Notes: generated by a model not told the origin, from the letters alone. A DNA stretch of 64,000 nucleotides from a virus (IMGVR_UViG_3300010279_000462), one strand, 5' to 3'. Positions 3,717-23,006 are shown, numbered from the stretch's first letter. Translations and numbers: made by a program.

Positions 3717-5089
3717 AGTTCATTCCGCATGATTACCAAAGCTACTGCACGGAGTACATCAAGACACACCCCGTCGCAGCTCTTTTTCTCGACATGGGAC
3801 TTGGCAAAACGGTCATTACTCTGACTGCCATCCAAGACCTCATGCTGGACACATTCGAGGTCAACAAGGTGCTGATCATTGCGCCGCTTCGTGTTGCCCG
3901 CGACACATGGCCGGCAGAAATTGAGAAGTGGGACCATCTGAAAAATCTGGACATTTCAATCGTCGTAGGCGATGTGAAGACACGCATTGCCGCTGTCCAT
4001 CACCCGGCCATGATCTATGTGGTCAACCGGGAAAATGTCAAATGGCTGGTGGAGTACTACGAGAAAAACGGGATGCGCTGGGACTTCAGCATGGTGGTCA
4101 TCGACGAGCTTTCGTCCTTCAAAAATTATCAGTCCCAGCGGTTCAAGTATCTGCGGAAAGTCCGACCCTTTGTGAAACGCTGGGTCGGGCTGACCGGCAC
4201 ACCGTCCTCCAACGGACTTATGGATCTCTGGGCCGAGATAGGAATTTTGGACGGTGGAGAGCGTTTGGGAAAGTTTATCGGTCGTTACCGTGAAGCCTAT
4301 TTCAAGGCATCGTCCATGAATCCGGCCAATGGTATCGTGTTCCAGTATAAGCCCAGAGAGGGAGCCGAGGAGCTAATCTACCAGAGAATCTCGGACATCA
4401 CCATTTCTATGAAGGCTCTGGACTACCTGCATATGCCGGACTGCATCCCGACCCGGTATGAGGTGGAGATGAACACGGAGGAGCGCAAGCTCTACGATAT
4501 GCTCAAGCAGGACCTTCTCATCCCGCTGAAGGATGGCGACATAGACGCTGCCAACGCTGCATCACTGACTGGAAAATTGTTGCAGATGAGCAATGGAGCT
4601 GTCTACGATGAGAACGGCAAAGCGAGAGTTCTGCATGACCACAAGCTGGAAGCTCTGGAGGACCTGATCGAAGCCGCCAATGGTCAGTCCGTTCTGGTGG
4701 CCTACTGGTTTAAGCATGACCGCCAGCGTATTATCGACCACCTGACAAAGCTGAAGATCCCGGTGAGGGACATCAAGACGAGCGAGGACATCAGGGACTG
4801 GAACGCCGGGAATGTCCCGGTCGCCCTGATCCATCCTGCCTCTGCCGGCCACGGTCTGAACATCCAGCAGGGCGGACACATCCTGATCTGGTTCGGGCTG
4901 ACATGGAGCCTCGAACTGTATCAGCAGACCAACGCCCGGCTTTGGCGACAGGGACAGACACAGGTGGTCACCATCCACCACATCATCACCAAGGACACGG
5001 TGGACGAGGATGTCATGGCCGCCCTTGAGCAGAAAGACATGACACAGGAGAAGCTGATTTCCGCCGTCAAAGCACGGCTGGAGGAATAG
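3713..5089 (+). CDS. SNF2-family DEAD/DEAH helicase
   Basis: Walker A DMGLGKT and DEAH-like VIDELSS are present. A C-terminal helicase domain is present. The VRR-NUC plus SNF2 pairing is common in phages. Confidence 0.85.
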   Translation: MKFIPHDYQSYCTEYIKTHPVAALFLDMGLGKTVITLTAIQDLMLDTFEVNKVLIIAPLRVARDTWPAEIEKWDHLKNLDISIVVGDVKTRIAAVHHPAMIYVVNRENVKWLVEYYEKNGMRWDFSMVVIDELSSFKNYQSQRFKYLRKVRPFVKRWVGLTGTPSSNGLMDLWAEIGILDGGERLGKFIGRYREAYFKASSMNPANGIVFQYKPREGAEELIYQRISDITISMKALDYLHMPDCIPTRYEVEMNTEERKLYDMLKQDLLIPLKDGDIDAANAASLTGKLLQMSNGAVYDENGKARVLHDHKLEALEDLIEAANGQSVLVAYWFKHDRQRIIDHLTKLKIPVRDIKTSEDIRDWNAGNVPVALIHPASAGHGLNIQQGGHILIWFGLTWSLELYQQTNARLWRQGQTQVVTIHHIITKDTVDEDVMAALEQKDMTQEKLISAVKARLEE

Positions 5090-5119
5090 CTCTCACCCTG
5101 AATAATAGGAGTAAGCAAT

Positions 5120-5836
5120 ATGAGCAAGATTCTATTTCTGAACGAAACCGACCGAAACGCATCGTATAAGACGGAGTACCGATATAAGACCGCCAAGCCG
5201 GTGAAGGCAGCCAAACCCAAGCGGGATGATGCCGGCTTCATCATCCCTTACGCAATGTTCCGTCCCATCCGGGAGCTGGGTCTGATCTGCGAGCTGCTGG
5301 GGGACACCCCGGTGCGCCGCAGTGCCGACCTCAAGATGAACCTTGACTATCTGATGAAGGAAGCCTACGAACACGCCATCGAGCAGATCATGTGCGGTGT
5401 CCGCTTGCAGGAGGTCCGCTGCCAGATGCAGTTCAATGCGGAAGACCGGGCATGGGAGCATTACACCCGGCTGCGGGAGAAGGGGCAGTACGCAGTCATG
5501 CCTTCGGTCACGGTGGAGGAACGCCGCCGGGTCATCCTTGGCGCGATCACTTGGAAGTATGACTGGATTCAGAAGCACAAGAAGTGGTGCTTCCAGTTCG
5601 CCGATGCGGTCATCACAAGAGAGAAGAACGGCGGCACGGAGAGCTGGAGCCAGTCCCAGTTCATTGAGAAGTTCATTCAGGTCGCAGATTCTCTGCCGGA
5701 AGCCAACCGACGACTGCTTGACCAACTGTACGAGACGGCTTGGGAGGTTATCCAGATTTATCGGTACGATGCTGATCCCTGCCAAGTGCCGGCTCCCTGG
5801 TATGACAAGAAGGAGGAAAACGATGCAGCAGAGTAA
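5120..5836 (+). CDS. hypothetical phage protein
   Basis: 238-aa ORF with good coding density. No recognisable motif. Confidence 0.5.
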   Translation: MSKILFLNETDRNASYKTEYRYKTAKPVKAAKPKRDDAGFIIPYAMFRPIRELGLICELLGDTPVRRSADLKMNLDYLMKEAYEHAIEQIMCGVRLQEVRCQMQFNAEDRAWEHYTRLREKGQYAVMPSVTVEERRRVILGAITWKYDWIQKHKKWCFQFADAVITREKNGGTESWSQSQFIEKFIQVADSLPEANRRLLDQLYETAWEVIQIYRYDADPCQVPAPWYDKKEENDAAE

Positions 5837-6212
5837 CACATTGCCGGCAGTTAAGAGCTTGTCGGAAGTTAAGACCTTGCCGGCAGCCAAGACCCCGTCG
5901 GCAGATAAGACTTTCCAGCCGCAGGAGAACCCTGAATGCTACGAGAACCTGGCGAATGCCATTGTCTTGCAGGCGTTCAAGGACTATAAGCGCGCACTGT
6001 GGAAGCTGTCACATGATCCGTATGACATTGACGCCGCAAGAAATAAGAAGAAGCTGGATCGTTTCTTCGATTCCAACTGGTATCGGCTGCTCACGGATGT
6101 GGATGCCGCTATTCTGGTGGGAGAAGCAAAGCGTCAGGTAGAGGACAGGTACGAGAAGCAGCAGAGGGCGATCCAGAGGTCGCGGGCGAGAAGAGCTGCC
6201 TTTGCCATGTAA
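5823..6212 (+). CDS. hypothetical phage protein
   Basis: Starts MQQSNT with RBS AGGAGGAAAACG upstream. It sits in the long ORF 5397-6212 but in the frame that follows the 5120-5836 gene. Confidence 0.45.
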   Translation: MQQSNTLPAVKSLSEVKTLPAAKTPSADKTFQPQENPECYENLANAIVLQAFKDYKRALWKLSHDPYDIDAARNKKKLDRFFDSNWYRLLTDVDAAILVGEAKRQVEDRYEKQQRAIQRSRARRAAFAM

Positions 6213-11003: not shown

Positions 11004-11456
11004 ATGTCGAAGAACAACCATGAAGATTTTTTGGGATGTCATACTCGCGGATATGAGGACATCAAGCTGCTGAAAATTTATCCGCTTCCGCCTGACACAA
11101 CCGTGATGGTCGTGGACACGGACAAGGACGACAATGTCGTGATGCGTGACTGTGTTGAAACCGGTAACTCCTACTGTCTGGCGTTGGTGGAGGAAAATGG
11201 CGAGAGGGCAGTTTATCCGTTTGCTCTGTCAACCATCTACGGCGTGGACTTGAGAGCGACAGTAATTCCCATTCGTCGTTGCCCCAGGTGTGGCAAACGG
11301 CTGCGTCCTCACATGGAGGAGGGCGATACCGGCACGTTGTACTACACCTGCAATCGCTGTGGTCATCGGGAGGAGAGTTGGCTGGACGCTGAGGAGCTGG
11401 ATAAACCCGAAGAATCCTGTGGCAGCTTTTTGGAGGAGGATGAAATCTATGAGTAA
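11004..11456 (+). CDS. hypothetical zinc-ribbon protein
   Basis: CPRCG...CNRCG zinc ribbon. Follows an AT-rich intergenic region. Confidence 0.5.
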   Translation: MSKNNHEDFLGCHTRGYEDIKLLKIYPLPPDTTVMVVDTDKDDNVVMRDCVETGNSYCLALVEENGERAVYPFALSTIYGVDLRATVIPIRRCPRCGKRLRPHMEEGDTGTLYYTCNRCGHREESWLDAEELDKPEESCGSFLEEDEIYE

Positions 11457-12516
11457 AATCATCACCTGTGAACAGGTCAGCAACGGTCACCCGGACAAAA
11501 TCTGTGACCAGATTGCGGATGCCATTGTGACCGACATCCTCCAGCACGACAGGAACGCCCGTGTGGCAATTGAGTGTCTGCTGAAGAAGAACCAGCTCTT
11601 TATCGCCGGCGAGGTCACGACCGACTACCAGCCCAACTACCACCAGCTCGTCCACAATGTGCTCACCGGCATCGGCACCGACAAGCTGGGCTTTGATTTC
11701 AGTGACCTGCTGCGCATCGGCATTCTGGTGGACAAGCAGTCGCCGGACATCGCACTCGGTGTGGATAGGGGCGGCGCCGGTGACCAGGGCATCATGTACG
11801 GCTACGCCACCAACGAAACGGCGGAGCAGATGCCGATTCCCTATATGGTCGCCACCAAGTTCCTGCAACTGCTGAAGGCACACCCCAGCAAGATGTTCCG
11901 TGCAGATGCCAAGGCGCAGGTCAGCTACGACTATGACACTGGCCGGATCACCACCTTCCTCTGCTCCGTGCAGCACAGCCCGGATGTAGAGGTCAGCGAC
12001 TTCCGCCATATCATCGAATCCATGATGGTGCTTGCCGCTTGTGAGTACGGACTGGATGGTGACTTCCAGAAGCTCGTCAATCCCACCGGCCGCTTCGTGC
12101 TGGGCGGCAGCTATGCAGACTGCGGTGTGACCGGTCGGAAGCTGGCGTGTGATACTTACGGCGGCATCGGTCGAATGGGTGGCGGCGCACTGTCCGGCAA
12201 AGACCCCACCAAAGTGGATCGCTCCGCTGCGTATATGGCACGGAAGATTGCCAAGGACATCGTGCAGGCCGGGTACGCTGACAAGTGCGAAGTCCAGCTG
12301 GCCTACGCCATCGGCGTGGTTCAGCCGGTGGGCGTATCGGTGGAGTGCTTCGGTACGGAGCATGAAGCCCCGGAGTTCATCGAAGCCTACGTCCGCGACA
12401 GCTACGACCTAACTCCGCAGGGCATCATCCAGCGGCTGGGTCTGCTGGATGTTGACTATAACAAGGTCAGCGCCTACGGTCACTTCGGCAAGCCTGGTCT
12501 GCCGTGGGAGGAATGA
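11449..12516 (+). CDS. metK: S-adenosylmethionine synthetase homolog, phage-encoded and compact (356 aa)
   Basis: Hallmark MetK motifs GHPDKICDQIADA, GAGDQGIMYGYA, GGGALSGKDPTKVDRSAAY. The ATG overlaps the upstream stop (ATGAGTAA). Confidence 0.85.
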   Translation: MSKIITCEQVSNGHPDKICDQIADAIVTDILQHDRNARVAIECLLKKNQLFIAGEVTTDYQPNYHQLVHNVLTGIGTDKLGFDFSDLLRIGILVDKQSPDIALGVDRGGAGDQGIMYGYATNETAEQMPIPYMVATKFLQLLKAHPSKMFRADAKAQVSYDYDTGRITTFLCSVQHSPDVEVSDFRHIIESMMVLAACEYGLDGDFQKLVNPTGRFVLGGSYADCGVTGRKLACDTYGGIGRMGGGALSGKDPTKVDRSAAYMARKIAKDIVQAGYADKCEVQLAYAIGVVQPVGVSVECFGTEHEAPEFIEAYVRDSYDLTPQGIIQRLGLLDVDYNKVSAYGHFGKPGLPWEE

Positions 12517-12519
12517 CCC

Positions 12520-12879
12520 GTGCCGCGCAGACCCAAGGTGCCGTGCAGACACCCCGGATGCCCGGAGCTGATTGAACCCGGCACTCTCTACTGTGAGAAG
12601 CACCTGCCCCTGCATCCAGAAGTGACGCGCCCTGCTGGGAAGCGGGGCTACACACGGCAGTGGCAAAAAATCAGCAAGGCGTATCTGCAAGCCCATCCAC
12701 TCTGCGCCGAGTGCATGAAGCAGGGCAGATACACGAAGGCCACCGTGGTAGACCACATCACACCGCACCGTGGAGATGCCAAACTTTTCTGGGACGAGAA
12801 TAATTGGCAGCCTCTTTGTAAGCGATGTCACGACCGGAAGACCTTCACCGAGGACATCAACCCGGTGTATCACTACTGA
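12520..12879 (+). CDS. HNH endonuclease
   Basis: CAEC...VDHITPHRGD...WQPLCKRCHDRKT is an HNH motif with zinc-binding cysteines. Confidence 0.85.
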   Translation: MPRRPKVPCRHPGCPELIEPGTLYCEKHLPLHPEVTRPAGKRGYTRQWQKISKAYLQAHPLCAECMKQGRYTKATVVDHITPHRGDAKLFWDENNWQPLCKRCHDRKTFTEDINPVYHY

Positions 12880-13280: not shown

Positions 13281-13583
13281 ATGCAGGATTACACAGCGGA
13301 AATGGTCAAGGACATGGCATTTGCCTTCTGTCCGCAGTGCGGAGCTGCCATCATTCCGAACCACCGGGGTAGACCACGGAAGTTCTGCTCCCCGGAATGC
13401 CGCTCCAAGTGGAACAACACTCATCCACGACCGCAGAACTGGAAGACCGTGCGGTCAAAGGTCTGCCCGGTGTGCGGCAGGGAGTTCTCCTACCGGCACC
13501 AGTACGGACTTCCGAGAAAATATTGCAGTCGTGCCTGTGCCAACACGGGCAGGGCGAAGGGAGAAAACAGAAATGGGGAATAA
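13281..13583 (+). CDS. hypothetical protein with duplicated zinc ribbons
   Basis: Two CPxCG...RKFCSxxCR / CPVCG...RKYCSRAC repeats. Confidence 0.5.
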   Translation: MQDYTAEMVKDMAFAFCPQCGAAIIPNHRGRPRKFCSPECRSKWNNTHPRPQNWKTVRSKVCPVCGREFSYRHQYGLPRKYCSRACANTGRAKGENRNGE

Positions 13584-13806
13584 GGTGATTGGCGTGTTCC
13601 CGATGTTCAACACCGGGGGCATCTGTGTACATGAGATTGACCACGCAGAGGACAAAATTCTTGCTTCCATGAACGGGGAGAACCCGGAGTGGTATCCGAT
13701 TACGGAAAAGCCGCAGTCGGAGATGGGCGGGGATGGCGATGACTTGGAGTCGGGCTTTTTGTTCGGCTCCTTTTTCGTGCCGTTCTCTGAGGTCATGCGC
13801 GTGTGA
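13573..13806 (+). CDS. small hypothetical protein
   Basis: 77-aa ORF that overlaps its neighbours at both ends. Confidence 0.35.
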   Translation: MGNKVIGVFPMFNTGGICVHEIDHAEDKILASMNGENPEWYPITEKPQSEMGGDGDDLESGFLFGSFFVPFSEVMRV

Positions 13807-15086
13807 AGGAGGACTACATGAAAGCAACCGCTGAACTGAAAATGCTGCCGGTATCTGTACTCAAGCCGGCCGCATACAATCCCCGGAAAAAGCTGAAGCC
13901 GGGGGATAAGGAGTACGAGAAGATCAAGAACTCCATCACGGAGTTCGGGTTTGCCGACCCGCTGGTGGTCAATGCCGATATGACAATTATCGGAGGACAC
14001 CAACGCCTGACTTGTGCGATTGATATGGGCTATACAGAAGTGCCTTGTGCGGTGGTGGACATCGACAAGACCAGAGAGAAAGCTCTGAACATTGCGCTCA
14101 ACAAAATCACGGGCGCGTGGGATGACACCCTGCTGGCCGACCTGCTCAAAGACATCGAAGAATCCAACTTCGATCTGGGCAAGACTGGATTTGAGCCGCC
14201 TGAAATCGAGACGCTGTTCAACAAGGTCCACAGCAAAGAAGTCAAGGAAGATGACTTTGATGTGGAGTCCGAGCTGAAGCAGCCGTGCTTCTCCAAAGCG
14301 GGCGACCTCTGGATGCTGGGCAAACACAGAGTTCTGTGCGGCGATTCCACCAAGGCAGAATGCTACGATACCCTGATGGACGGAGTAAAAGCCAACCTCG
14401 TGCTTTCGGACCCTCCGTACAATGTGGATGTGGAAGAAACGGCTGGCAAGATCATGAACGACAACATGGGCGACTCGGAATTTTACGAGTTCCTGCTGGC
14501 AGCGTTCAAGCAGATGCACGGACATCTGGCGGATGATGGCTCCATCTACATCTTCCATGCAGACACCGAAGGGCTGAACTTCCGAAAGGCATTCAAGGAT
14601 GCCGGGTTCTACTTGTCGGGGTGCTGCATCTGGAAGAAAAACGCACTGGTGCTGGGCCGCAGCCCTTACCAGTGGCAGCATGAGCCGTGCCTTTACGGGT
14701 GGAAGCAGAAAGGTAAGCACCAGTGGTATTCCGACCGCAAGCAGACGACAATCTGGGAGTACGACCGTCCGAAAGCCAATAAGGATCATCCGACCATGAA
14801 GCCCATTGGTTTGATGAGCTATCCTATCCGCAATTCCACCATGACCAACGGCATCGTCCTTGACCCGTTCCTCGGCAGTGGTTCGACCCTGATCGCCTGT
14901 GAGGAGACCGACCGCGTCTGCCGAGGTATTGAGCTGGACCCGAAGTTCGTGGATGTCATCGTGAAGCGGTATATCGAACACAGCGAAGGCCGCTATGAGG
15001 ATGTGTATGTCCTTCGGGATGGCCAGAAACTGAAGTTCGATGAGGTCGCTTCCTTTGAGCCGGAACAGGAGGCCGCAGATGGCTGA
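13803..15086 (+). CDS. ParB-like nuclease domain fused to an amino (N6-A/N4-C) DNA methyltransferase
   Basis: N-terminal ParB-N motif (PLVVNADMTIIGGHQRL). DPPYN (motif IV) precedes FLGSGST (motif I), which is the beta-class order. Confidence 0.85.
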   Translation: MKEDYMKATAELKMLPVSVLKPAAYNPRKKLKPGDKEYEKIKNSITEFGFADPLVVNADMTIIGGHQRLTCAIDMGYTEVPCAVVDIDKTREKALNIALNKITGAWDDTLLADLLKDIEESNFDLGKTGFEPPEIETLFNKVHSKEVKEDDFDVESELKQPCFSKAGDLWMLGKHRVLCGDSTKAECYDTLMDGVKANLVLSDPPYNVDVEETAGKIMNDNMGDSEFYEFLLAAFKQMHGHLADDGSIYIFHADTEGLNFRKAFKDAGFYLSGCCIWKKNALVLGRSPYQWQHEPCLYGWKQKGKHQWYSDRKQTTIWEYDRPKANKDHPTMKPIGLMSYPIRNSTMTNGIVLDPFLGSGSTLIACEETDRVCRGIELDPKFVDVIVKRYIEHSEGRYEDVYVLRDGQKLKFDEVASFEPEQEAADG

Positions 15087-15849
15087 TGCAAAATGTGTCC
15101 TCATCCACGATAACTTCCAGAACTTCAAGTCCTACAACATCCCCAAGGCACAGCTGGTGATCGCCGACATTCCGTACAACATCGGAACGGACTTCTACGC
15201 CAGCCGGCCGGACTGGTATGTGGGCGGGGACAACAAGAACGGCGAGAGCAATAAGGCACGGAAGGCGGCGTTCAATACCGACTTCACCTTCAACATCGCA
15301 GAGTACTTCCACTTCTGCAACCGGCTGCTGAAGAAGGAGCCGGCAACAGGAGAGAAGGGTGCGCCCTGTATGATCGTGTTCTGCGCGTTCCAGCAGATTC
15401 CGAAGGTCATCACCGAAGCGGAGAAGTACGGCTTCAAGAACTACATCCCGCTGACCTTCTGCAAGAACTACAGTCCGCAGGTCTTGAAGGCCAACATGAA
15501 GATCGTGGGTGCAACGGAGTATGCGCTGGTGCTGTACCGCAGCAAGCTTCCGAAGTTCCGCAACCTCGGCGAAGACGGCAAGCCCCACATGATCTTCAAC
15601 TGGTTCGACTGGAAGCGGGACGGCAAGGACTATCCGAAGATCCATCCTTCCCAGAAGCCAGTGTCCGTGCTGAAACGCCTGATTGAGATCTTCACCGACC
15701 CCGGCGATGTGGTCATTGACCCCTGCGCCGGAAGTGGCTCGACCCTTCGTGCTGCAAGAGAGCTGGGGCGGGATAGCTACGGATTTGAAGTGTCTAGAGA
15801 TTTCTACCTGAAAGCCAGGGAGCAGATGCTCGGAGAGGAGGCCGTATGA
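15079..15849 (+). CDS. DNA amino-methyltransferase (beta class)
   Basis: DIPYN motif IV and DPCAGSGSTL motif I. ATGGCTGA overlap with the upstream gene. Confidence 0.8.
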   Translation: MADAKCVLIHDNFQNFKSYNIPKAQLVIADIPYNIGTDFYASRPDWYVGGDNKNGESNKARKAAFNTDFTFNIAEYFHFCNRLLKKEPATGEKGAPCMIVFCAFQQIPKVITEAEKYGFKNYIPLTFCKNYSPQVLKANMKIVGATEYALVLYRSKLPKFRNLGEDGKPHMIFNWFDWKRDGKDYPKIHPSQKPVSVLKRLIEIFTDPGDVVIDPCAGSGSTLRAARELGRDSYGFEVSRDFYLKAREQMLGEEAV

Positions 15850-18047
15850 GCAAGGAACAGAATATGACGCTGACCCTCGGAAGTCTGTTTTCAGGCTCCG
15901 GGGGTTTTGAATTGGGAGGGCTTCTTACCAATCAAATCGTGCCGGTATTCAATTCGGAGATTGAACCATTTGCCATCCGGGTCACGACCAAGCGTCTGCC
16001 GGAGGTCAAGCATTACGGAGATGTGTCTGCCCTGAACGGTGCAGACCTGCCACCTGTGGACATCATCACCTTTGGCAGTCCTTGTCAGGATATGTCCATT
16101 GCTGGCAAGCGAGATGGTCTGGATGGTTCACGGTCCAGCCTGTTCTATGAAGCAATCCGAATCGTGAAGGAAATGAGGTGTAAGACCAATGGAGCAAAAC
16201 CAAGATTTATCGTGTGGGAGAATGTGCCGGGCGCCTTCTCCTCCAACAAAGGACAAGACTTCAAGGCAGTCCTCGAAGCCGTCATCGGTGTTAAAGAACC
16301 GTCCGCCGAGGTGCCTGCGCCTGATAAAAAAGGCTGGCCCGACGCTGACTACTATCTGGGAGACGGATGGAGCGTCGCGTATCGAGTTCTTGATGCGCAG
16401 TGGTGGGGCGTGCCCCAACGCCGAAAACGCATCTACCTTGTCGCAGATTTTACAGACCACAGTGCCCCCAAAGTACTATTTGAGTCCGACGGCCTGTCTG
16501 GGTATTCTGCGGAGAGCTTCCGTGCGTGGCAAAGAGCTGCCGCCTGTGCTGAAGACAGCACTGGAACGGCAGGCGGCTGCGGAAGAATCTGCCTGAACGA
16601 CCAAGGCGGGGCGCAGATGGATGTGTCCGAAGAAGTGACCGGGACACTCCGTGCGCAGGAGCATGGGCATCAGCCCTGCGTCCTTGAAGCGGCTGGTTTC
16701 TGTACGGAACACTCCGCCAATGCCAGAAGCATCGGGTACGAGGAAGAACGGTCGCCTACACTCCGGGCCGGCGTTGTGCCAGCCGCCATTGCACTGGAAA
16801 ATCATCCGACCGACAGCCGGGTGAAGATTTCCAAGGATGGCATGGTGCAGACGCTGACCAGCCGGTGCGGCACGGGCGGTGGGAACGTTCCTCTGATCAT
16901 GGATGGCGCGGAGAATCCTCCAGCGGTCACCTTGAAGATCCGTTCCGGGTGCGAGGGTGGCGGCAAGGGAGCCATCTGGCAGGAGGACAAGTCCGCCACT
17001 CTTGGCTGTAATAACGACCAGACAGTTTTCGTGCCGAAGTGCTACGGTGTCTGCTCGAAAGCCAGCCATTCCATGATGAGCGACAATCCGCACAGCGGCT
17101 TCTATGAAGCCAGCACTTCCCGGACGCTGGATTGCAGCGGCGGTGACCCGACCTGTAATCAGGGTGGGCTGTGTATCTGCGAACCTGTTGTCTGCGTGGA
17201 TCAGGGCGGCGGCAAGTCCAACTGTACGGTAGACGAACAGGTTGCACCGCCGCTCGCCTGTACCCATGGAGGTTCACCGGCTGTGGCATTCACGCAGAAC
17301 CAGCGGGATGAAGTCAGAGATCTGGGCGAGAAAGCCGGCTCCCTGTCCGCACAGCCGGGAATGAAGCAGCAGACCTTCGTGGCGCAGCCGGAGGATGTGA
17401 CCGCGTTCCATGTGAACCAACGCAATGAACTCATTGACCTGCACGGAAAGTCCGGCGCGCTCATGGCGACCCGGAGCGACCAGATGCAGACCTTCGTGCT
17501 GCAGGGCAGCATGATCGGGCGCAGTGATGAGAACGGTCCGCAGGGGGATGGCATCAATGAGGATGTCTGCTTCACCCTGGATGCCACTGACCGTCACGCT
17601 GTTTGCGCTTCCAAGGATGTGTACGCTATGACCACCGGCTCCTTCATGAAGGTGGAGGAGAATGTGTCTCCAACCCTTATGGCGAGGGACTATAAAGACC
17701 CGACCACCATCGCGCCGGTGCCGCAGGATATCAGCTACACGGTCCGCCGCCTGACCCCGACCGAGTGTGCCCGGCTGCAGGGCTTTCCGGATTGGTGGTG
17801 CAGTGACCTCGAAACCGAGAATCCCACGGAAGCGGATATGGCTTTCTGGCAGGATGTGTTTGAAACGCACCGCAGACTTGTGACCCATGCCAAGAAGCCG
17901 AAAACGGAGAAGCAGATCCGCAAATGGCTGGCTGACCCGTATTCGGATGCGGCAGAGTATAAGCTCTGGGGCAACGGCGTTTCTTTGCCCATAGTTTTTT
18001 TCGTTCTAAGTGGCATCGTATGGGCAGCAAATAAGGATTTTTGTTAA
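15846..18047 (+). CDS. DNA (cytosine-5)-methyltransferase with a very large variable region (733 aa)
   Basis: Motifs FSGSGGF (I), GSPCQDMS (IV), ENVPG (VI), TECARLQGFPDWW (IX) and GNGVSLP (X) are present. The final ~24 codons are supplied by the RIT left inverted repeat. Confidence 0.85.
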   Translation: MSKEQNMTLTLGSLFSGSGGFELGGLLTNQIVPVFNSEIEPFAIRVTTKRLPEVKHYGDVSALNGADLPPVDIITFGSPCQDMSIAGKRDGLDGSRSSLFYEAIRIVKEMRCKTNGAKPRFIVWENVPGAFSSNKGQDFKAVLEAVIGVKEPSAEVPAPDKKGWPDADYYLGDGWSVAYRVLDAQWWGVPQRRKRIYLVADFTDHSAPKVLFESDGLSGYSAESFRAWQRAAACAEDSTGTAGGCGRICLNDQGGAQMDVSEEVTGTLRAQEHGHQPCVLEAAGFCTEHSANARSIGYEEERSPTLRAGVVPAAIALENHPTDSRVKISKDGMVQTLTSRCGTGGGNVPLIMDGAENPPAVTLKIRSGCEGGGKGAIWQEDKSATLGCNNDQTVFVPKCYGVCSKASHSMMSDNPHSGFYEASTSRTLDCSGGDPTCNQGGLCICEPVVCVDQGGGKSNCTVDEQVAPPLACTHGGSPAVAFTQNQRDEVRDLGEKAGSLSAQPGMKQQTFVAQPEDVTAFHVNQRNELIDLHGKSGALMATRSDQMQTFVLQGSMIGRSDENGPQGDGINEDVCFTLDATDRHAVCASKDVYAMTTGSFMKVEENVSPTLMARDYKDPTTIAPVPQDISYTVRRLTPTECARLQGFPDWWCSDLETENPTEADMAFWQDVFETHRRLVTHAKKPKTEKQIRKWLADPYSDAAEYKLWGNGVSLPIVFFVLSGIVWAANKDFC

Positions 18048-18064
18048 ATTATGAGCCGATAAAA
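17976..18064 (+). repeat. RIT left terminal inverted repeat
   Basis: 17979-18004 is the exact reverse complement of 21601-21626. Imperfect similarity continues inward to about 18064. Confidence 0.7.
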
Positions 18065-18098
18065 TTCCATGATACCAACCTTTTATGATAGCTGAAAA

Positions 18099-18130
18099 GC
18101 CGGTAAAAGTAAGACCTTACTTTTACCGGC
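18099..18130 (+). promoter_or_regulatory. perfect 15-bp-arm palindrome in the ritA leader, followed by TGTATAAT
   Basis: GCCGGTAAAAGTAAG-AC-CTTACTTTTACCGGC. TATAAT lies 8 bp downstream. Confidence 0.4.
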
Positions 18131-18183
18131 TCAGCCTGTATAATGATGTTAGTACCGAACATACAGATTAAAGGTGAGGCATA

Positions 18184-19443
18184 ATGGACAATTTTCTAAC
18201 TGAGACTTCTTCAGCGAAAGTTAAAGACACTCCTACAACTTATACCGTAAAGTCCTTGGTAGAGGACGCAACGACATTTCTTCAATCCAGGGGTGACTAC
18301 CGTGACCGCGTAGTGAACTATATCAAGGGAACATGGCATCAATTTGAAAATTACTGCGAAACCAATAGCATTTTATTCTACCAGTCTGAATACAGTAACA
18401 GATTCATTGAAAGCCTTTCTATTGGTTTACAGCCTCTCAAACCGGAAACCATTAAGCGTAAGGTGGGCAATCTTAAAATGCTCGACCTGTACGCAAAAAA
18501 TGGCACATGGGAGAAGGATGCATTAGATTCCAAACCTAACCTTGAAGCGGAATTTTCTGAATTCATCGCAGCACAGGATGAGTTCTTAAAAACACGTCAC
18601 TATTCGAAATTTTCTTGTGAAACCATTTGTAAACAGACAACAGCTGTACTGAATTATCTTCAGAATAATGAAATCACCAGTTTCTCGGAAATCACTAGTG
18701 ATATCATTTCTGACTATGCTATTTCACTGAAGGGTCATGCAAAAAGTACTATGCGCTGTGAACTCAGCCGAATTAGACAGATTTTGCATAATGCCTACCT
18801 TCTAAAGTATACCGCTGATGATTTGTCCACTTACGTCCCAACGTACAATCTTGGCCAACCCCAAAGCAATGTTAAAATATGGCATTCTAGCGAGATAAAC
18901 AGAGTTCTGTCTGCGGTGGATCGGTCAAATCCTAAAGGTTTGCGGGATGCCGCTTATATCACCATTGCAGCAGAACTTGGGATGCGAAGTAAGGACATTA
19001 CTGACCTTAAGCTTTCGGATATTGATTGGGAAACTTGCACTATCTCGTTTGTCCAGAGCAAAACCGGGAAAGTCAATCCCCTTCCGCTTAATGAAAAAAT
19101 TGGCCGCGCCATTATTGACTATCTGAAAGTCAGACCCGATACGGATTGTGAATACCTATTTGTGAATATGAATCCTCCGTATGGCAAAATGAAGTCGTTC
19201 AATTCATCATTTAACAAGTATGTCAGCCGCTCCGGAGTCACTATTCCTGTTAATGCTCACCATAATCTTCACTCGCTCCGGGCTACCGTTGCGACCAAAC
19301 TTTTGAAAGAGGGCGTATCTCCTGACGATATCGTTTCTTTTCTGGGGCATTCCGACAGGGAGTCGCTTCACAACTATATCCGTATGGATATAGACAGCCT
19401 CCGAAATTGTGCATTGTCTTTTGAGAATGGTGAGTTTGTATGA
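18184..19443 (+). CDS. ritA: tyrosine recombinase RitA-like
   Basis: 419 aa. RBS AGGTGAGG. Motifs HSLRAT...LGHSD...LHNY (R-H-R-Y). Confidence 0.8.
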   Translation: MDNFLTETSSAKVKDTPTTYTVKSLVEDATTFLQSRGDYRDRVVNYIKGTWHQFENYCETNSILFYQSEYSNRFIESLSIGLQPLKPETIKRKVGNLKMLDLYAKNGTWEKDALDSKPNLEAEFSEFIAAQDEFLKTRHYSKFSCETICKQTTAVLNYLQNNEITSFSEITSDIISDYAISLKGHAKSTMRCELSRIRQILHNAYLLKYTADDLSTYVPTYNLGQPQSNVKIWHSSEINRVLSAVDRSNPKGLRDAAYITIAAELGMRSKDITDLKLSDIDWETCTISFVQSKTGKVNPLPLNEKIGRAIIDYLKVRPDTDCEYLFVNMNPPYGKMKSFNSSFNKYVSRSGVTIPVNAHHNLHSLRATVATKLLKEGVSPDDIVSFLGHSDRESLHNYIRMDIDSLRNCALSFENGEFV

Positions 19444-20420
19444 TGCGGGTTTACAAATACACAAGTGGACTATCCACACAGATACAATCCTTTATAGAGG
19501 AAAAGCGTGCTCTTGGATGCAAGTATGAAAAGGAGGCCAAAGTCTTTTATGAAATGGACAGATTTCTAGTTAGGGAAGGAGTTGTTGAGCCAATCCTCAC
19601 TCAGAATGTGGTTGAAAAATGGGTAGAGAAGCGTCCCAACGAGAAAAGAAAAAATCAACGTTGGCGACTAAATTTTACCAAGCGTTTTGTAGCTTATCTT
19701 CTGCTTCACCACTATGAAGCGTATTATCCTGAATACAAAATTTCCTCAAGCGATGACAAATGCTTCGTGCCATACATTTTCACAAACACGGAAATTGGCG
19801 ACCTTATTGCATATTTTAATACCATGAAGCCAAGTAGACAGTATCCTAATGGCCATATCGTACTTCCCTTACTGTTTCTAACACTTATATGCTGTGGGTT
19901 GCGGTCTGGTGAAGTTGCATCGCTTACAGTTAATGATGTTGATATTAAAAACGGCATTCTCACAATCAGAAATGCCAAGCACGGGAAAAGTCGCAGTATT
20001 CCTATTTCTGAAAGTATGTGCCTCAAATATGCTGAATACTATGATTTACTCCATACTAACAGCGACGGTAAGGATTATTTCTTCCCGAATGCACGTGGCA
20101 ACTGTCATCACACCAATGAAATCGAACGCAGATTTAAGGAGGCGCTATGGAACTGCGGCATTCCTTATAAAGGACGCGGTTATGGTCCTAGAGTCCATGA
20201 TCTTCGCCATACTTTTGCAGTTCGCGCCATGCAGAAGATTCGGAAGGAAAAAGGAAGTAATCTTATGGCACTTCCATATCTGTCAGTCTATTTAGGGCAC
20301 TACAACATGAACAAAACACAGCAATATTTGCACCTTGTTGTGGATGCATATCCAGAATTAATTGAGAAGCAGCAAGATTACCTTGGCGAAACAATACCAG
20401 TATGGGAGGTTTCAGAATGA
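19440..20420 (+). CDS. ritB: tyrosine recombinase RitB-like
   Basis: 326 aa. ATGA overlap with ritA. Motifs RHTFAVRA...LGHYNMNKTQQY. Confidence 0.8.
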   Translation: MMRVYKYTSGLSTQIQSFIEEKRALGCKYEKEAKVFYEMDRFLVREGVVEPILTQNVVEKWVEKRPNEKRKNQRWRLNFTKRFVAYLLLHHYEAYYPEYKISSSDDKCFVPYIFTNTEIGDLIAYFNTMKPSRQYPNGHIVLPLLFLTLICCGLRSGEVASLTVNDVDIKNGILTIRNAKHGKSRSIPISESMCLKYAEYYDLLHTNSDGKDYFFPNARGNCHHTNEIERRFKEALWNCGIPYKGRGYGPRVHDLRHTFAVRAMQKIRKEKGSNLMALPYLSVYLGHYNMNKTQQYLHLVVDAYPELIEKQQDYLGETIPVWEVSE

Positions 20421-21436
20421 GAACACCGGACTTTTCAAAATACTTAACGATGTTCCTTGAACACTATCTTCCAGAACTTAAGAATGCCAGCGAGAATACC
20501 TTGGCAACATACAGCGACACTTTCTGCTATTTTCTAACTTATTGTCAGGATGTGGAAGCAATGAAAATTGAGCGAATGTCGGTCAGTGATTTCACTGCGG
20601 AACTTGTTGAAAGATACCTGCACTGGATGGAAACAAGCCAAGGCAATAGTCTTGCAACTCGGAATAACCGACTGGCTACAATCCATTCTTTCGTTAGATT
20701 TTTGCAGCCCAGGGAACCAAAACTGCTACTCAACTTTCAGAAGATTCTTGCAATTCCAACAAAGAAAGCACCACAAAAAACTGTGCAGCCTCTCTCAAAG
20801 GAATCTGTCGCTGTACTACTTCGTCAGCCAGACACATCTACTCTCAAGGGAAGAAGGGATGCAACTGTTCTATGCGTGTTGTATGATACGGCTGCTCGTG
20901 TATCGGAAATCTGCAATCTCCGCATAGAGGATGTGCGGTTTGAGAATCCTCCGCATATTCGCATAATGGGAAAAGGAATGAAAGTGCGTACAGTTCCTAT
21001 TTTGCCAGCGACAGCTATAAACTTAAAAAGCTACCTTATAGAAACGCATCGATTAAAGCCTGAGTGCTATCACTTGCCTCTTTTCGTTAACCGTGATGGA
21101 GAACCCTTTACACGGTCCGGAATCAGGTATATTTTAAACAAATACGTCAAAATGGCCCATGAAATAGATCCATCTATTCCCGAAAGTCTTAATCCCCATC
21201 GTATCAGACATACCAAGGCAATGCATCTATATGAGGCGGTTGATGACCTTATCGATGTCCGTGATTTTCTCGGCCATGCTGATATAAAAACTACAAGTAT
21301 CTACGCTAGATCCAGTCTTGCCAAAAAGAGGAAGGCACAAGAGAAGATTTCGAATTCTCCTGTGCCTGAGATGGCATCTTGGCAACAGGATAAAGGCACA
21401 CTCGAATGGCTTAAAAACTATGGGCGCAAGAAATAG
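20417..21436 (+). CDS. ritC: tyrosine recombinase RitC-like
   Basis: About 339 aa. RBS GGGAGG 7 nt upstream. ATGA overlap with ritB. Motifs HRIRHTKAM...LGHADIKTTSIY. Confidence 0.8.
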   Translation: MRTPDFSKYLTMFLEHYLPELKNASENTLATYSDTFCYFLTYCQDVEAMKIERMSVSDFTAELVERYLHWMETSQGNSLATRNNRLATIHSFVRFLQPREPKLLLNFQKILAIPTKKAPQKTVQPLSKESVAVLLRQPDTSTLKGRRDATVLCVLYDTAARVSEICNLRIEDVRFENPPHIRIMGKGMKVRTVPILPATAINLKSYLIETHRLKPECYHLPLFVNRDGEPFTRSGIRYILNKYVKMAHEIDPSIPESLNPHRIRHTKAMHLYEAVDDLIDVRDFLGHADIKTTSIYARSSLAKKRKAQEKISNSPVPEMASWQQDKGTLEWLKNYGRKK

Positions 21437-21540
21437 CAACGGAGCCCCAAATTATAGCAGGCAGATCAGGATAATTCTTGATCTGCTTTTTTATTGGTAT
21501 ACACCATTACCTATTTGATACTGACTGTAAGGGAGGCGGA

Positions 21541-21629
21541 TTTTATTGGCTTATTTTCTATGACAAATCTTTATTATATGCCCAAACTATTCCAGATAAG
21601 ACGAAAAAAACTATGGGCAAAGAAACACC
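21541..21629 (+). repeat. RIT right terminal inverted repeat
   Basis: Reverse complement aligns with 17976-18064. The outer 26 bp are exact and the inner part is imperfect. Confidence 0.7.
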
Positions 21630-21651
21630 ATTATCGGTTGCAATACATAAT

Positions 21652-21729
21652 GGCGTCGCACTGCCATGTGTCTATTTTGTGCTGGCCGGCATCGTGTGGG
21701 CGGCGCAGAATGCCGAGGAAACCCAATAA
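21652..21729 (+). pseudogene. displaced native 3' end of the C5-MTase gene (encodes GVALPCVYFVLAGIVWAAQNAEETQ*)
   Basis: About 70% nt identity to the element-borne MTase 3' end at 17976-18040. Its protein tail parallels GVSLPIVFFVLSGIVWAANKDFC*. Confidence 0.55.
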
Positions 21730-21923: not shown

Positions 21924-23006
21924 ATGAAAAAGTACGTTTTGAACATCGATGACCGCAAGGCACTGGTAGGCCGCCTGATGGAGCTGACTGGGCTGAGTTC
22001 CCAGTACACCTATATGCCGCGGTGTGCCTACCTTGTCGGCAACTACACCGTTGAGAAGGAGGGAACGCTTGTGACGGACGAAACCGCAGACCAGCAGGTC
22101 ATTGAGACCCTGCTGAACGAGGGCATCATCGTGGACCCTGATATGCCGACCCAGCAGCCGAGTGTGGCAGAAGCACCGCAGGACGAGATGCCCGGCGAGG
22201 TGACCGAACAGACCGATGCCGAGGAGGAAGCAACCGCCGAGGAATCCTCGGATGTTGAGGAAACCGATGACGAGGAGGAAGATGACACCCCTGATGAATC
22301 CACGGAGTCCGAAAGCGAGGATGTGGATGACCTGACGGTCAGCGTTCCTATGGCGGGTCACACTCCACAGAGCATCCGCAACTTCCTGAACCTGATGTAC
22401 AGCCGCGGACCGCTGCTGAACAAGGCTCTGGGAACGAATTTCTCGGTATCGGATGCTTTGCTGGAAGCCTTGGATCAGGCGACCATCCGCACGGTGAATG
22501 AGATGCTGGATGAGCTGGAGGAGTACCGCCTCGGTGCGGGAGATACCGGCATGACCGGCATCCTCATCCTGCCGGATAAGATCAGCCTGTGCTTCGCCGG
22601 ACCGCTGAGTTCGGAACAGGTGCGCGTCTGCACCCAGCTGACTTCCGCCATGAACCGCATGGCGATCACCCAGAAGCGGATTCAGGCAAAGACCGTGAAC
22701 GATGAGAACGAGAAGTACGCTTTACGCATCTGGCTCATCCGCTTGGGTCTGAATGGCAACGAACACAAGGAACTGCGCAGAGTCCTGATGCAGAACCTTT
22801 CCGGCCATGCCGCCTTCCGCACGGCAGAGGAAGCTGAGAAGTTCCGTATCAAGGAAAAGGCAAAGCGCGACAAGCTGAAAGCCGCGAAACAGGCGGCACA
22901 GGGCGGCGACGCCGATGCCGGGGAAACGGGCGAGGCGGAAGCAGACGCGCCCACACAGCCCGACTGTGGGGCGGACACGGCGCAGATGCTGGAAGCGGGA
23001 GCGTAA
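21924..23006 (+). CDS. protein with amidoligase C-terminal-like domain and acidic linker (paralog of the downstream amidoligase C-terminus)
   Basis: C-terminal ~110 aa (…NDENEKYALRIWLIRLGLNGNEHKELRRVLMQNL…) align with the amidoligase C-terminus (…TDNEKYAMRCWMLRLGFIGDEFKTAREILLRNM…). D/E-rich segment in the middle. Confidence 0.6.
   Translation: MKKYVLNIDDRKALVGRLMELTGLSSQYTYMPRCAYLVGNYTVEKEGTLVTDETADQQVIETLLNEGIIVDPDMPTQQPSVAEAPQDEMPGEVTEQTDAEEEATAEESSDVEETDDEEEDDTPDESTESESEDVDDLTVSVPMAGHTPQSIRNFLNLMYSRGPLLNKALGTNFSVSDALLEALDQATIRTVNEMLDELEEYRLGAGDTGMTGILILPDKISLCFAGPLSSEQVRVCTQLTSAMNRMAITQKRIQAKTVNDENEKYALRIWLIRLGLNGNEHKELRRVLMQNLSGHAAFRTAEEAEKFRIKEKAKRDKLKAAKQAAQGGDADAGETGEAEADAPTQPDCGADTAQMLEAGA

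Follow-up and report, generated by a model that had tools for sequence, protein, structure and literature searches.

A 64,000-nucleotide stretch of viral DNA (IMGVR_UViG_3300010279_000462, analysed at its full length and hereafter called the window) carries three consecutive DNA methyltransferase (MTase) genes, the last of which encodes a 733-amino-acid (aa) C5-cytosine MTase with a greatly enlarged region between motifs VIII and IX. The locus raises the question of whether a single catalytic core could serve many DNA targets through a series of recognition modules in this region, and the original prediction, made from the sequence alone, had described the region as an expanded and possibly multispecific target-recognition domain. 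Our analysis points to a multispecific-type phage C5-MTase in which ten recognition modules share one core, a reading that we hold to be quite likely. Genes for terminase, portal and major head proteins and for a D5-type primase-helicase mark the window itself as phage or prophage DNA.

A canonical C5-methyltransferase core with a 438-residue variable region

The C5-MTase gene comprises the following features.

15846-18047, plus strand: C5-cytosine MTase, probably of the multispecific type, 733 aa (Pfam PF00145 DNA_methylase, E 3.9e-42; TIGR00675 dcm; motifs aligned to M.HhaI)
15846-16460, plus strand: N-terminal part of the catalytic core, aa 1-205 (motif alignment and structure prediction)
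16596-17744, plus strand: array of ten putative target-recognition modules with TL motifs, u1-u10, aa 251-633
17283-17510, plus strand: u7 and u8, aa 480-555, a tandem repeat of ~38 aa (local alignment)
17745-17980, plus strand: motif IX (RRLTPTECARLQGFPD), an alpha-helical insert, and motif X to W-G-N-G-V, where the phage-derived sequence ends

The conserved motifs appear in canonical order, with motif I (FSGSGG) at aa 15-20, motif IV (PC) at 79-80, motif VI (ENV) at 125-127, motif VIII (QRRKR) at 191-195, motif IX at 634-649 and motif X at 709-717, and a residue-level alignment with M.HhaI covers motifs I-VI, VIII and IX. By these aligned motifs, the interval between VIII and IX spans ~438 aa and contains ten TL motifs, compared with ~105 aa and one TL motif in M.HhaI, in agreement with the predicted 733-aa enzyme carrying about 400 aa at this position. 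The reading frame is intact across all 733 codons. AlphaFold2 (AF2), supplied with 115 diverse homologues, modeled the core with a predicted local distance difference test score (pLDDT) above 90, and the best Foldseek matches of this core were M.HhaI and M.HaeIII, which share both its fold and its motifs.

Relative to the orthologues in two close relatives (L005 and L006), the N-terminal core has a ratio of nonsynonymous to synonymous substitution rates (dN/dS) of 0.18-0.22. Inspected by eye, the approximately 21 nonsynonymous core differences appear to lie mostly near aa 16-36 (~15891-15953), where the window reads FSGSGGFELGGLLTNQIVPVFNSE and L005 and L006 read FDGSGGFPLGGLLTGKITTLWSSE. Both versions of this segment recur among relatives, which suggests two alleles exchanged by recombination rather than relaxed selection.

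Ten TL modules occupy the variable region

Published work treats the TL motif as characteristic of C5-MTase recognition domains, those of M.HhaI and M.HaeIII having one each, and used it to define the modules of multispecific enzymes (PMC2413257). TL anchors in the window enzyme lie at aa 267, 305, 336, 385, 427, 469, 499, 538, 577 and 610, that is, 30-49 aa apart, and the units follow a pattern in which a hydrophobic residue and an acidic turn precede (T/S/P/A)-L-x-(A/S/C). The form T[LIV]x[ASTC] occurs seven times in the variable region against 1.4 occurrences expected from shuffles (P 3.5e-4), and once in the 305 residues outside it.

A tandem repeat of ~38 aa had already been singled out in the original prediction. 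That pair is real, as the two copies (aa 480-517 and 518-555; 48% identity) give a local alignment score of 71 (z 13.8-15.9) that none of 2000 shuffles reached, but its wider extent had been missed: the copies are u7 and u8 of the ten-unit array. The remaining modules resemble each other weakly (a few pairs at z 3-8), as expected of diverged recognition modules on a common scaffold motif.

We built a module hidden Markov model (HMM) seeded on the ten units and iterated on 270 family proteins and four Bacillus phage enzymes, with shuffled decoys as control. It produced 1918 matches in the real sequences versus nine in the decoys, and it marked exactly ten sites in the window enzyme. The model also marks TL motifs in the SPR, rho11s, H2 and phi3T enzymes (one or two per enzyme), none of which was used in building it. 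A leave-one-out ungapped position-specific scoring matrix scored nine units at z 1.9-4.7 and u3 at 0, a result of minor weight, as the choice of anchors by motif makes it partly circular. We also considered whether the region consists of a single target-recognition domain with unrelated linker, and found ten TL modules instead.

Modules are gained, lost and reordered under strong purifying selection

The family is very large, with at least 8000 close matches and, at E up to 1e-3, 37,402 representatives. At 86-97% identity, relatives differ from the window enzyme almost solely by in-frame insertions and deletions of 23-40 aa, each corresponding to one TL unit. The losses include aa 253-275 (u1), aa 448-479 (u6, in six proteins) and a deletion running from the TL motif of u1 to that of u2, while the gains are inserts of 28, 34, 40 and 38 aa that bring their own T[LIV] motifs (SSTIGE, AQTVSS, ANTLNT and GTVATG). 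The variants without u1 include P0081 and P0099, those without u6 include P0100 and P0103, and the ANTLNT and GTVATG inserts are found in P0034 and P0030, respectively. In another protein, P0104, the u7-u8 pair is represented by one module of the u7/u8 type, which ends in the u8-type FVLQ, and close relatives reach 11-12 modules.

Among 150 representatives obtained by clustering at 50% identity, any one of the ten modules is present in 15-82 proteins, at ~50-90% identity and in varying order, such as u2,u3,u5,u9,u7,u10 in P0129, u4,u5,u1,u2,u6 in P0132 and u9,u4,u5 in P0204. Family enzymes of ~400 aa have two TL units, one of them u1- or u3-type. Protein length scales with module count as 39.7 aa per module plus 424 aa (r = 0.74; 66 full-length representatives), with a median spacing of 41 aa. 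As a rough figure for the repertoire, 913 unique module sequences from the 270 proteins fall into 148 single-linkage clusters at 60% identity, a cutoff used instead of 40-50%, where the clusters chain. These patterns support modules that behave as independent and exchangeable units, at least as judged by comparing sequences, and they delineate a large gut-phage family whose enzymes carry 2-12 modules from a broad, shuffled repertoire.

The array is also under very strong purifying selection. Across aa 251-633, the window enzyme differs from L005 and L006 by three nonsynonymous and 68-69 synonymous changes (dN/dS 0.011). The changes per module number 4-10 synonymous and 0-1 nonsynonymous, and no unit resembles a decaying linker or pseudo-module. 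The ten TL modules, their gain, loss and reshuffling, and the purifying selection on all ten support the proposal of an expanded, possibly multispecific recognition region.

Relation to characterized multispecific enzymes

We compared the window enzyme with the classical enzymes M.SPRI, M.Phi3TI, M.Rho11sI and M.H2I (K02124, M13488, X05242, M72412). Like these, it is an orphan C5-MTase of a temperate phage with one catalytic core and an enlarged motif VIII-IX region, and in both cases this region is built of contiguous ~40-aa modules, in which T[LIV]x[TSA] is followed by a hydrophobic strand and which vary between related phages. The classical unit motifs include ..SPT[IL]TT.., ..SHTLSA.., ..TTLTS.. 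and ..AFTVNT... The differences lie in host lineage (gut Clostridia for the window, Bacillus for the classical enzymes), in core sequence (25-32% identity), in a module repertoire that is much larger in the window family, and in the number of TL units, which is three in M.SPRI, four in M.Rho11sI, four in M.H2I and two in M.Phi3TI, versus ten in the window enzyme and up to twelve in its close relatives.

Work from the Trautner laboratory is said to have found that the number of units tracks the reported number of specificities in SPR, phi3T, rho11s and H2, and Trautner and colleagues reportedly described the SPR and phi3T modules in 1996 as ~40 aa long. The spacing in the window enzyme (30-49 aa), the family median (41 aa), the slope of length on module count (39.7 aa) and the sizes of the insertions and deletions (23-40 aa) all fit such a module. 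Two individual modules resemble classical ones: u9 (CFTLDATDRHAV) aligns with the C-terminal module common to all four enzymes (AFTVNTIDRHGV) at z 3.7-5.4, and u3 aligns with the unit common to phi3T and H2 at z 3.1-3.7. If the shared and the phi3T-specific modules have the targets that the reported specificities imply, u9 may be of the GGCC type and u3 of the GCNGC type. We treat this as a lead, and these two weak resemblances are all that we found toward assigning modules to targets. A literature search of incomplete coverage found no description of C5-MTases with ~10 modules. The window enzyme is an extreme case of the known multispecific class, not a separate class.

By analogy with M.SPRI, M.Phi3TI, M.Rho11sI and M.H2I, each module in turn would pair with the shared catalytic core and direct methylation of its own short DNA target; the modules are presumably active, and most of them probably have different targets. 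A single polypeptide could thereby shield the phage genome from many Type II restriction systems, with the phage MetK providing S-adenosylmethionine and the two upstream amino-MTases, one of them fused to a ParB domain, contributing probable N6-adenine marks. The known role of such phage enzymes suggests that the biological role here is likewise anti-restriction, in line with the broad anti-restriction capacity proposed in the original prediction.

Multispecific C5-MTases are a classic example of modular DNA recognition, and the characterized ones have 2-4 TL units in the sequences compared. If the modules of the window family are active, they would explain how a very widespread gut prophage lineage tolerates many restriction systems, and they would offer a ready library of ~40-aa recognition modules in which natural insertion and deletion variants allow motifs to be assigned to modules. 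They would also bring into sharper focus a structural problem, namely how one catalytic site can serve many modules.

Alternative explanations

Several points weigh against ten modules with ten targets. The eight modules other than u9 and u3 show no similarity to experimentally mapped modules, and the likeness of u9 and u3 is itself weak. In HMM comparisons with multispecific recognition domains, as put forward in the original prediction, an HMM built from six classical SPR and rho11s units was too weak to recover the array, while the family HMM marks TL motifs in all four classical enzymes. A search of the array against all PDB sequences gave no match at E up to 10. AF2 with 28 close homologues yielded an unusable model (pLDDT 29), and with 115 diverse homologues the array had pLDDT mostly below 50 and no confident fold; hence, we make no structural statement about the modules. 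Access of each of ten modules to the catalytic site poses a puzzle that the classical enzymes also present. Judging from their similarity, u7 and u8 may share or overlap in their targets. M.Rho11sI is said to carry inactive pseudo-modules, and the module count is therefore an upper bound on the number of specificities.

One alternative is a monospecific enzyme in which only u10, next to motif IX, recognizes DNA and the other nine units form a repetitive structural or non-specific DNA-binding extension that might aid, for instance, processivity or tethering. The location of u10 would suit such a role, since it sits at a canonical distance from motif IX (24 aa, compared with a published range of 10-50 aa; PMC2413257) and the unit adjoining motif IX is also u10-like in two short members of the family, P0187 and P0227; the failure of AF2 to resolve the array is also compatible with it. 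However, the position of u10 is not fixed, as many relatives carry the extra GTVATG module between u10 and motif IX, and a structural spacer would be expected neither to show a dN/dS of 0.011 in every unit nor to retain 60-90% identity per module despite reshuffled order and content. In the classical multispecific enzymes, moreover, modules distant from motif IX are reportedly functional, according to the Trautner laboratory. We therefore consider recognition by u10 alone unlikely. The array could also act as one composite recognition surface with relaxed or very short specificity, leading to near-global cytosine methylation. Dense methylation benefits phages, the presence of MetK in the same genome is in keeping with a high demand for methyl groups, and ten or more targets of 4-6 bp would approach global methylation in any case. 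Against this, near-identical variants gain or lose single modules while the neighboring modules stay undisturbed, and the modules are reordered in other proteins, which favors independent units over a cooperative surface and makes the composite arrangement very unlikely in our estimation.

Decay of the gene must be weighed as well, given that a 3.7-kb, presumably mobile element (described below) has inserted at its 3' end and breaks the original frame at motif X, which could have inactivated the C5-MTase and left the array as a relic. Yet the C-terminus contributed by the element is in frame and agrees with the displaced one at 14 of 17 aligned codons, the other three being conservative changes, and AF2 predicts a confident C-terminal helix at the rebuilt end (pLDDT 92-95). 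The same rebuilt end is found in two other genomes, neither frameshifts nor stops interrupt the 733 codons, and the array is under strong purifying selection when compared with uninterrupted relatives. Hence, we regard decay as highly improbable and favor a multispecific-type enzyme that is probably functional.

A recombinase-in-trio element rebuilds the C-terminus of the C5-methyltransferase

The inserted element belongs to the recombinase-in-trio (RIT) type, and its features are as follows.

17981-21656, plus strand: inserted RIT-type element, 3676 bp, ~41% GC versus 55% around it; absent from L005
17973-18065: left terminal inverted repeat, 93 nt, 77% complementary to 21540-21632
21540-21632: right terminal inverted repeat, whose minus strand encodes a product ending in NGVSLPIVFFVLSGIVWAYNKDLS and a stop codon
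18184-19443, plus strand: RitA-like tyrosine recombinase, 419 aa, with a long N-terminal region (Pfam Phage_integrase and SAM-like domain; NCBIfam Xer-type)
19440-20420, plus strand: RitB-like tyrosine recombinase, 326 aa, overlapping the RitA-like gene by 4 nt (Pfam/NCBIfam)
20402-21436, plus strand: RitC-like tyrosine recombinase, 344 aa, overlapping the RitB-like gene by 19 nt (Pfam/NCBIfam)
21657-21729, plus strand: displaced original 3' end of the C5-MTase gene, ending in ALPCVYFVLAGIVWAAQNAEETQ and a stop codon, a remnant 3' of the element and collinear with the intact gene end in L005

All three recombinases match Phage_integrase over nearly the whole profile. L005 serves as an empty-site comparator with 92% nucleotide identity on both flanks, and the comparison places the insertion directly after the motif X codons for W-G-N-G-V, with GGCGT present at both junctions. 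The first 67 nt of the element (17981-18047) encode a replacement C-terminus for the C5-MTase, SLPIVFFVLSGIVWAANKDFC followed by a stop codon, which makes up its last 22 codons. This tail is a low-GC counterpart of the displaced ALPCVYFVLAGIVWAAQNAEETQ that has diverged mostly at synonymous sites, and the right inverted repeat encodes the same kind of tail on the opposite strand. The predicted open reading frame (ORF) extending to 18047 is genuine, but the origin of 17981-18047 in the inserted element had gone unnoticed.

Related elements, 70-75% identical, occur in four contigs of metagenome-assembled genomes (L009-L012; 3593-3999 bp), each approximately as long as the element itself, which suggests a multi-copy element that breaks assemblies at its inverted repeats. 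One of these contigs is binned as Bacteroides, which may reflect either a binning artefact or wide spread. In L009, a Dorea contig, both junctions show the same arrangement within a different allele of the same MTase family, and L011 has the same left junction and rebuilt tail in yet another allele. L005 and L006 represent empty sites, as opposed to the occupied sites in differing MTase alleles of the window, L009 and L011; we observed no excision product.

A more distant trio, with 57% RitA identity, lies at 3986-7201 of L008 (IMGVR_UViG_3300029698_000145) and is not in an MTase gene; therefore, we limit the claim of a motif X target to the closer subfamily and have dropped its generalization to all trio elements. 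The L008 trio is flanked by two divergently oriented paralogous genes whose products end in ..DNPKYTMRC.L.RLGM.G.E.K..RK..LRNL.G.SAFRK, and a HicA/HicB-like pair lies inside these flanks, an arrangement that reflects either a different target or a larger inverted duplication.

Earlier work established the RIT class (Van Houdt 2009; Ricker 2013; as described in PMC3414803, PMC10214605, PMC8138268). The window element shares with its members three adjacent, overlapping tyrosine recombinase genes, the first of them lengthened by an additional N-terminal DNA-binding region, a size of ~3.5 kb and terminal inverted repeats. It differs from known RIT elements in residing in a gut Firmicutes phage, in having a defined target in the motif X codons of a C5-MTase, and in carrying coding inverted repeats that rebuild the C-terminus of the target. 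The target specificity of RIT elements is listed as not tested in Table 1 of PMC10214605, and the window element may offer the first clear target site for an element of this class.

Taken together, the two subjects invite a bolder proposal: that enzymes with 10-12 modules are the most multispecific DNA methyltransferases known, every module being active and distinct and drawn from a pool of at least 100 types whose reshuffling serves gut Clostridia phages in an arms race, and that a RIT subfamily has specialized on the motif X codons of their genes, with coding inverted repeats that would rebuild the C-terminus in either orientation. The poorly understood RIT class would thereby gain its first defined target and its first example of a 'host-gene-sparing' design. 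We put this combined proposal forward tentatively and think it doubtful that all of its parts will hold.

The methylation island and its gene neighborhood

Upstream of the C5-MTase gene lie two amino-MTase genes, preceded by MetK and HNH genes.

11449-12516, plus strand: MetK, S-adenosylmethionine synthetase, 355 aa (Pfam S-AdoMet_synt N, M and C domains; start set by homology to the 355-aa L005 gene)
12520-12879, plus strand: HNH endonuclease, 119 aa (Pfam HNH, E 2e-10; same position in L005 and L006)
13818-15086, plus strand: fusion of ParB_N with a beta-class amino-MTase, 422 aa (Pfam ParB_N and N6_N4_Mtase; 422-aa orthologue in L005 and L006)
15079-15849, plus strand: second beta-class amino-MTase, 256 aa (Pfam N6_N4_Mtase, E 1.4e-24; PHROG 67; 256-aa orthologue in relatives)

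The first MTase was expected to carry a ParB-like domain and to begin at 13803; the fusion stands, with ParB_N at aa 11-94 (E 3.9e-8) and N6_N4_Mtase at aa 198-387 (E 2.4e-28), but the start is the ATG at 13818 behind GAAGGAGG, not the GTG at 13803. This protein falls in PHROG 498 (DNA methyltransferase, E 2e-187) and also in PHROG 620, and an N6-adenine target is likely because its motif IV reads DPPY. The second amino-MTase has DIPY as motif IV and begins at ATG 15079 behind AGGAGG, overlapping the end of the fusion gene by 8 nt (ATGGCTGA), while the C5-MTase ATG at 15846 overlaps the stop of the second amino-MTase by 4 nt (ATGA). The corrected starts agree with the gene calls in relatives. 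Given the overlaps at both junctions and the starts backed by ribosome-binding sites, the coupling of the three MTase genes is real, and the anticipated run of three consecutive, translationally coupled genes is borne out, all three ORFs lying on the plus strand with matches to the expected Pfam families. Beta-class amino-MTases are thought to work as dimers (PMC7544214).

The predicted order, with the MTase genes downstream of MetK and HNH, is likewise correct, although a gap of ~940 bp with two small ORFs separates HNH from the ParB-MTase. One of these ORFs (13281-13583) encodes a 100-aa double zinc-ribbon protein with weak, sub-threshold matches that include Lar restriction alleviation and YacG, and the other (~13573-13806; 77 aa) is kept immediately 5' of the ParB-MTase in relatives. 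A partner function in anti-restriction or regulation is conceivable for either product. We recognized no cognate restriction endonuclease near the island, where the sole nuclease domain is that of the small phage-type HNH. The island of MetK, HNH, ParB-MTase, amino-MTase and C5-MTase is conserved among relatives, L005 and L006 both having MetK, HNH, a 77-aa ORF and genes of 422, 256 and 735 aa in this order. The neighbors of the C5-MTase are MetK, HNH, two MTases and the RIT-type element.

The N-terminal ParB/Srx-fold domain joined to a beta-class N6_N4 methyltransferase reproduces the architecture of the ParB-MTase of Bacillus cereus ATCC 10987. In a prophage of that strain, the ParB-MTase stands next to the multispecific C5-MTase M.BceSV with an HNH gene close by; non-specific DNA nicking has been reported for the ParB-MTase, and the sites modified by M.BceSV are GCNGC and related sequences (PMC3592412, PMC11347163). 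The window resembles this prophage in bringing together HNH, a ParB-MTase fusion and a multispecific-type C5-MTase, the likeness to M.BceSV being drawn from its published description, and differs from it in the extra amino-MTase between the ParB-MTase and the C5-MTase and in the upstream MetK.

The closest annotated phages are gut Clostridia phages, assigned to Oscillospiraceae, Acutalibacteraceae and Ruminococcus. Phage NatCom_17901 (L013, PV036423.1), classed in Ca. Heliusvirales, has a similar methyltransferase cluster adjoining its terminase. At 5048-5908 of this genome, between the first methyltransferase and a long C5-MTase, lies a gene annotated as phosphoadenosine phosphosulfate reductase, in the slot taken in the window by the second amino-MTase. 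C5-MTases have been reported in 67% and MetK in 59% of Ca. Heliusvirales genomes, in a study that did not analyze the architecture of the C5 enzymes (PMC11283538). On the 3' side of the island (from 21924-23006 onward in the window; 12403-16900 in L005), relatives have in common a block of genes consisting of a 353-aa gene without a Pfam match, Amidoligase_2, DpnD-PcfM, two GGACT/AIG2-like (gamma-glutamyl cyclotransferase) genes, DUF4314 and DUF3846.

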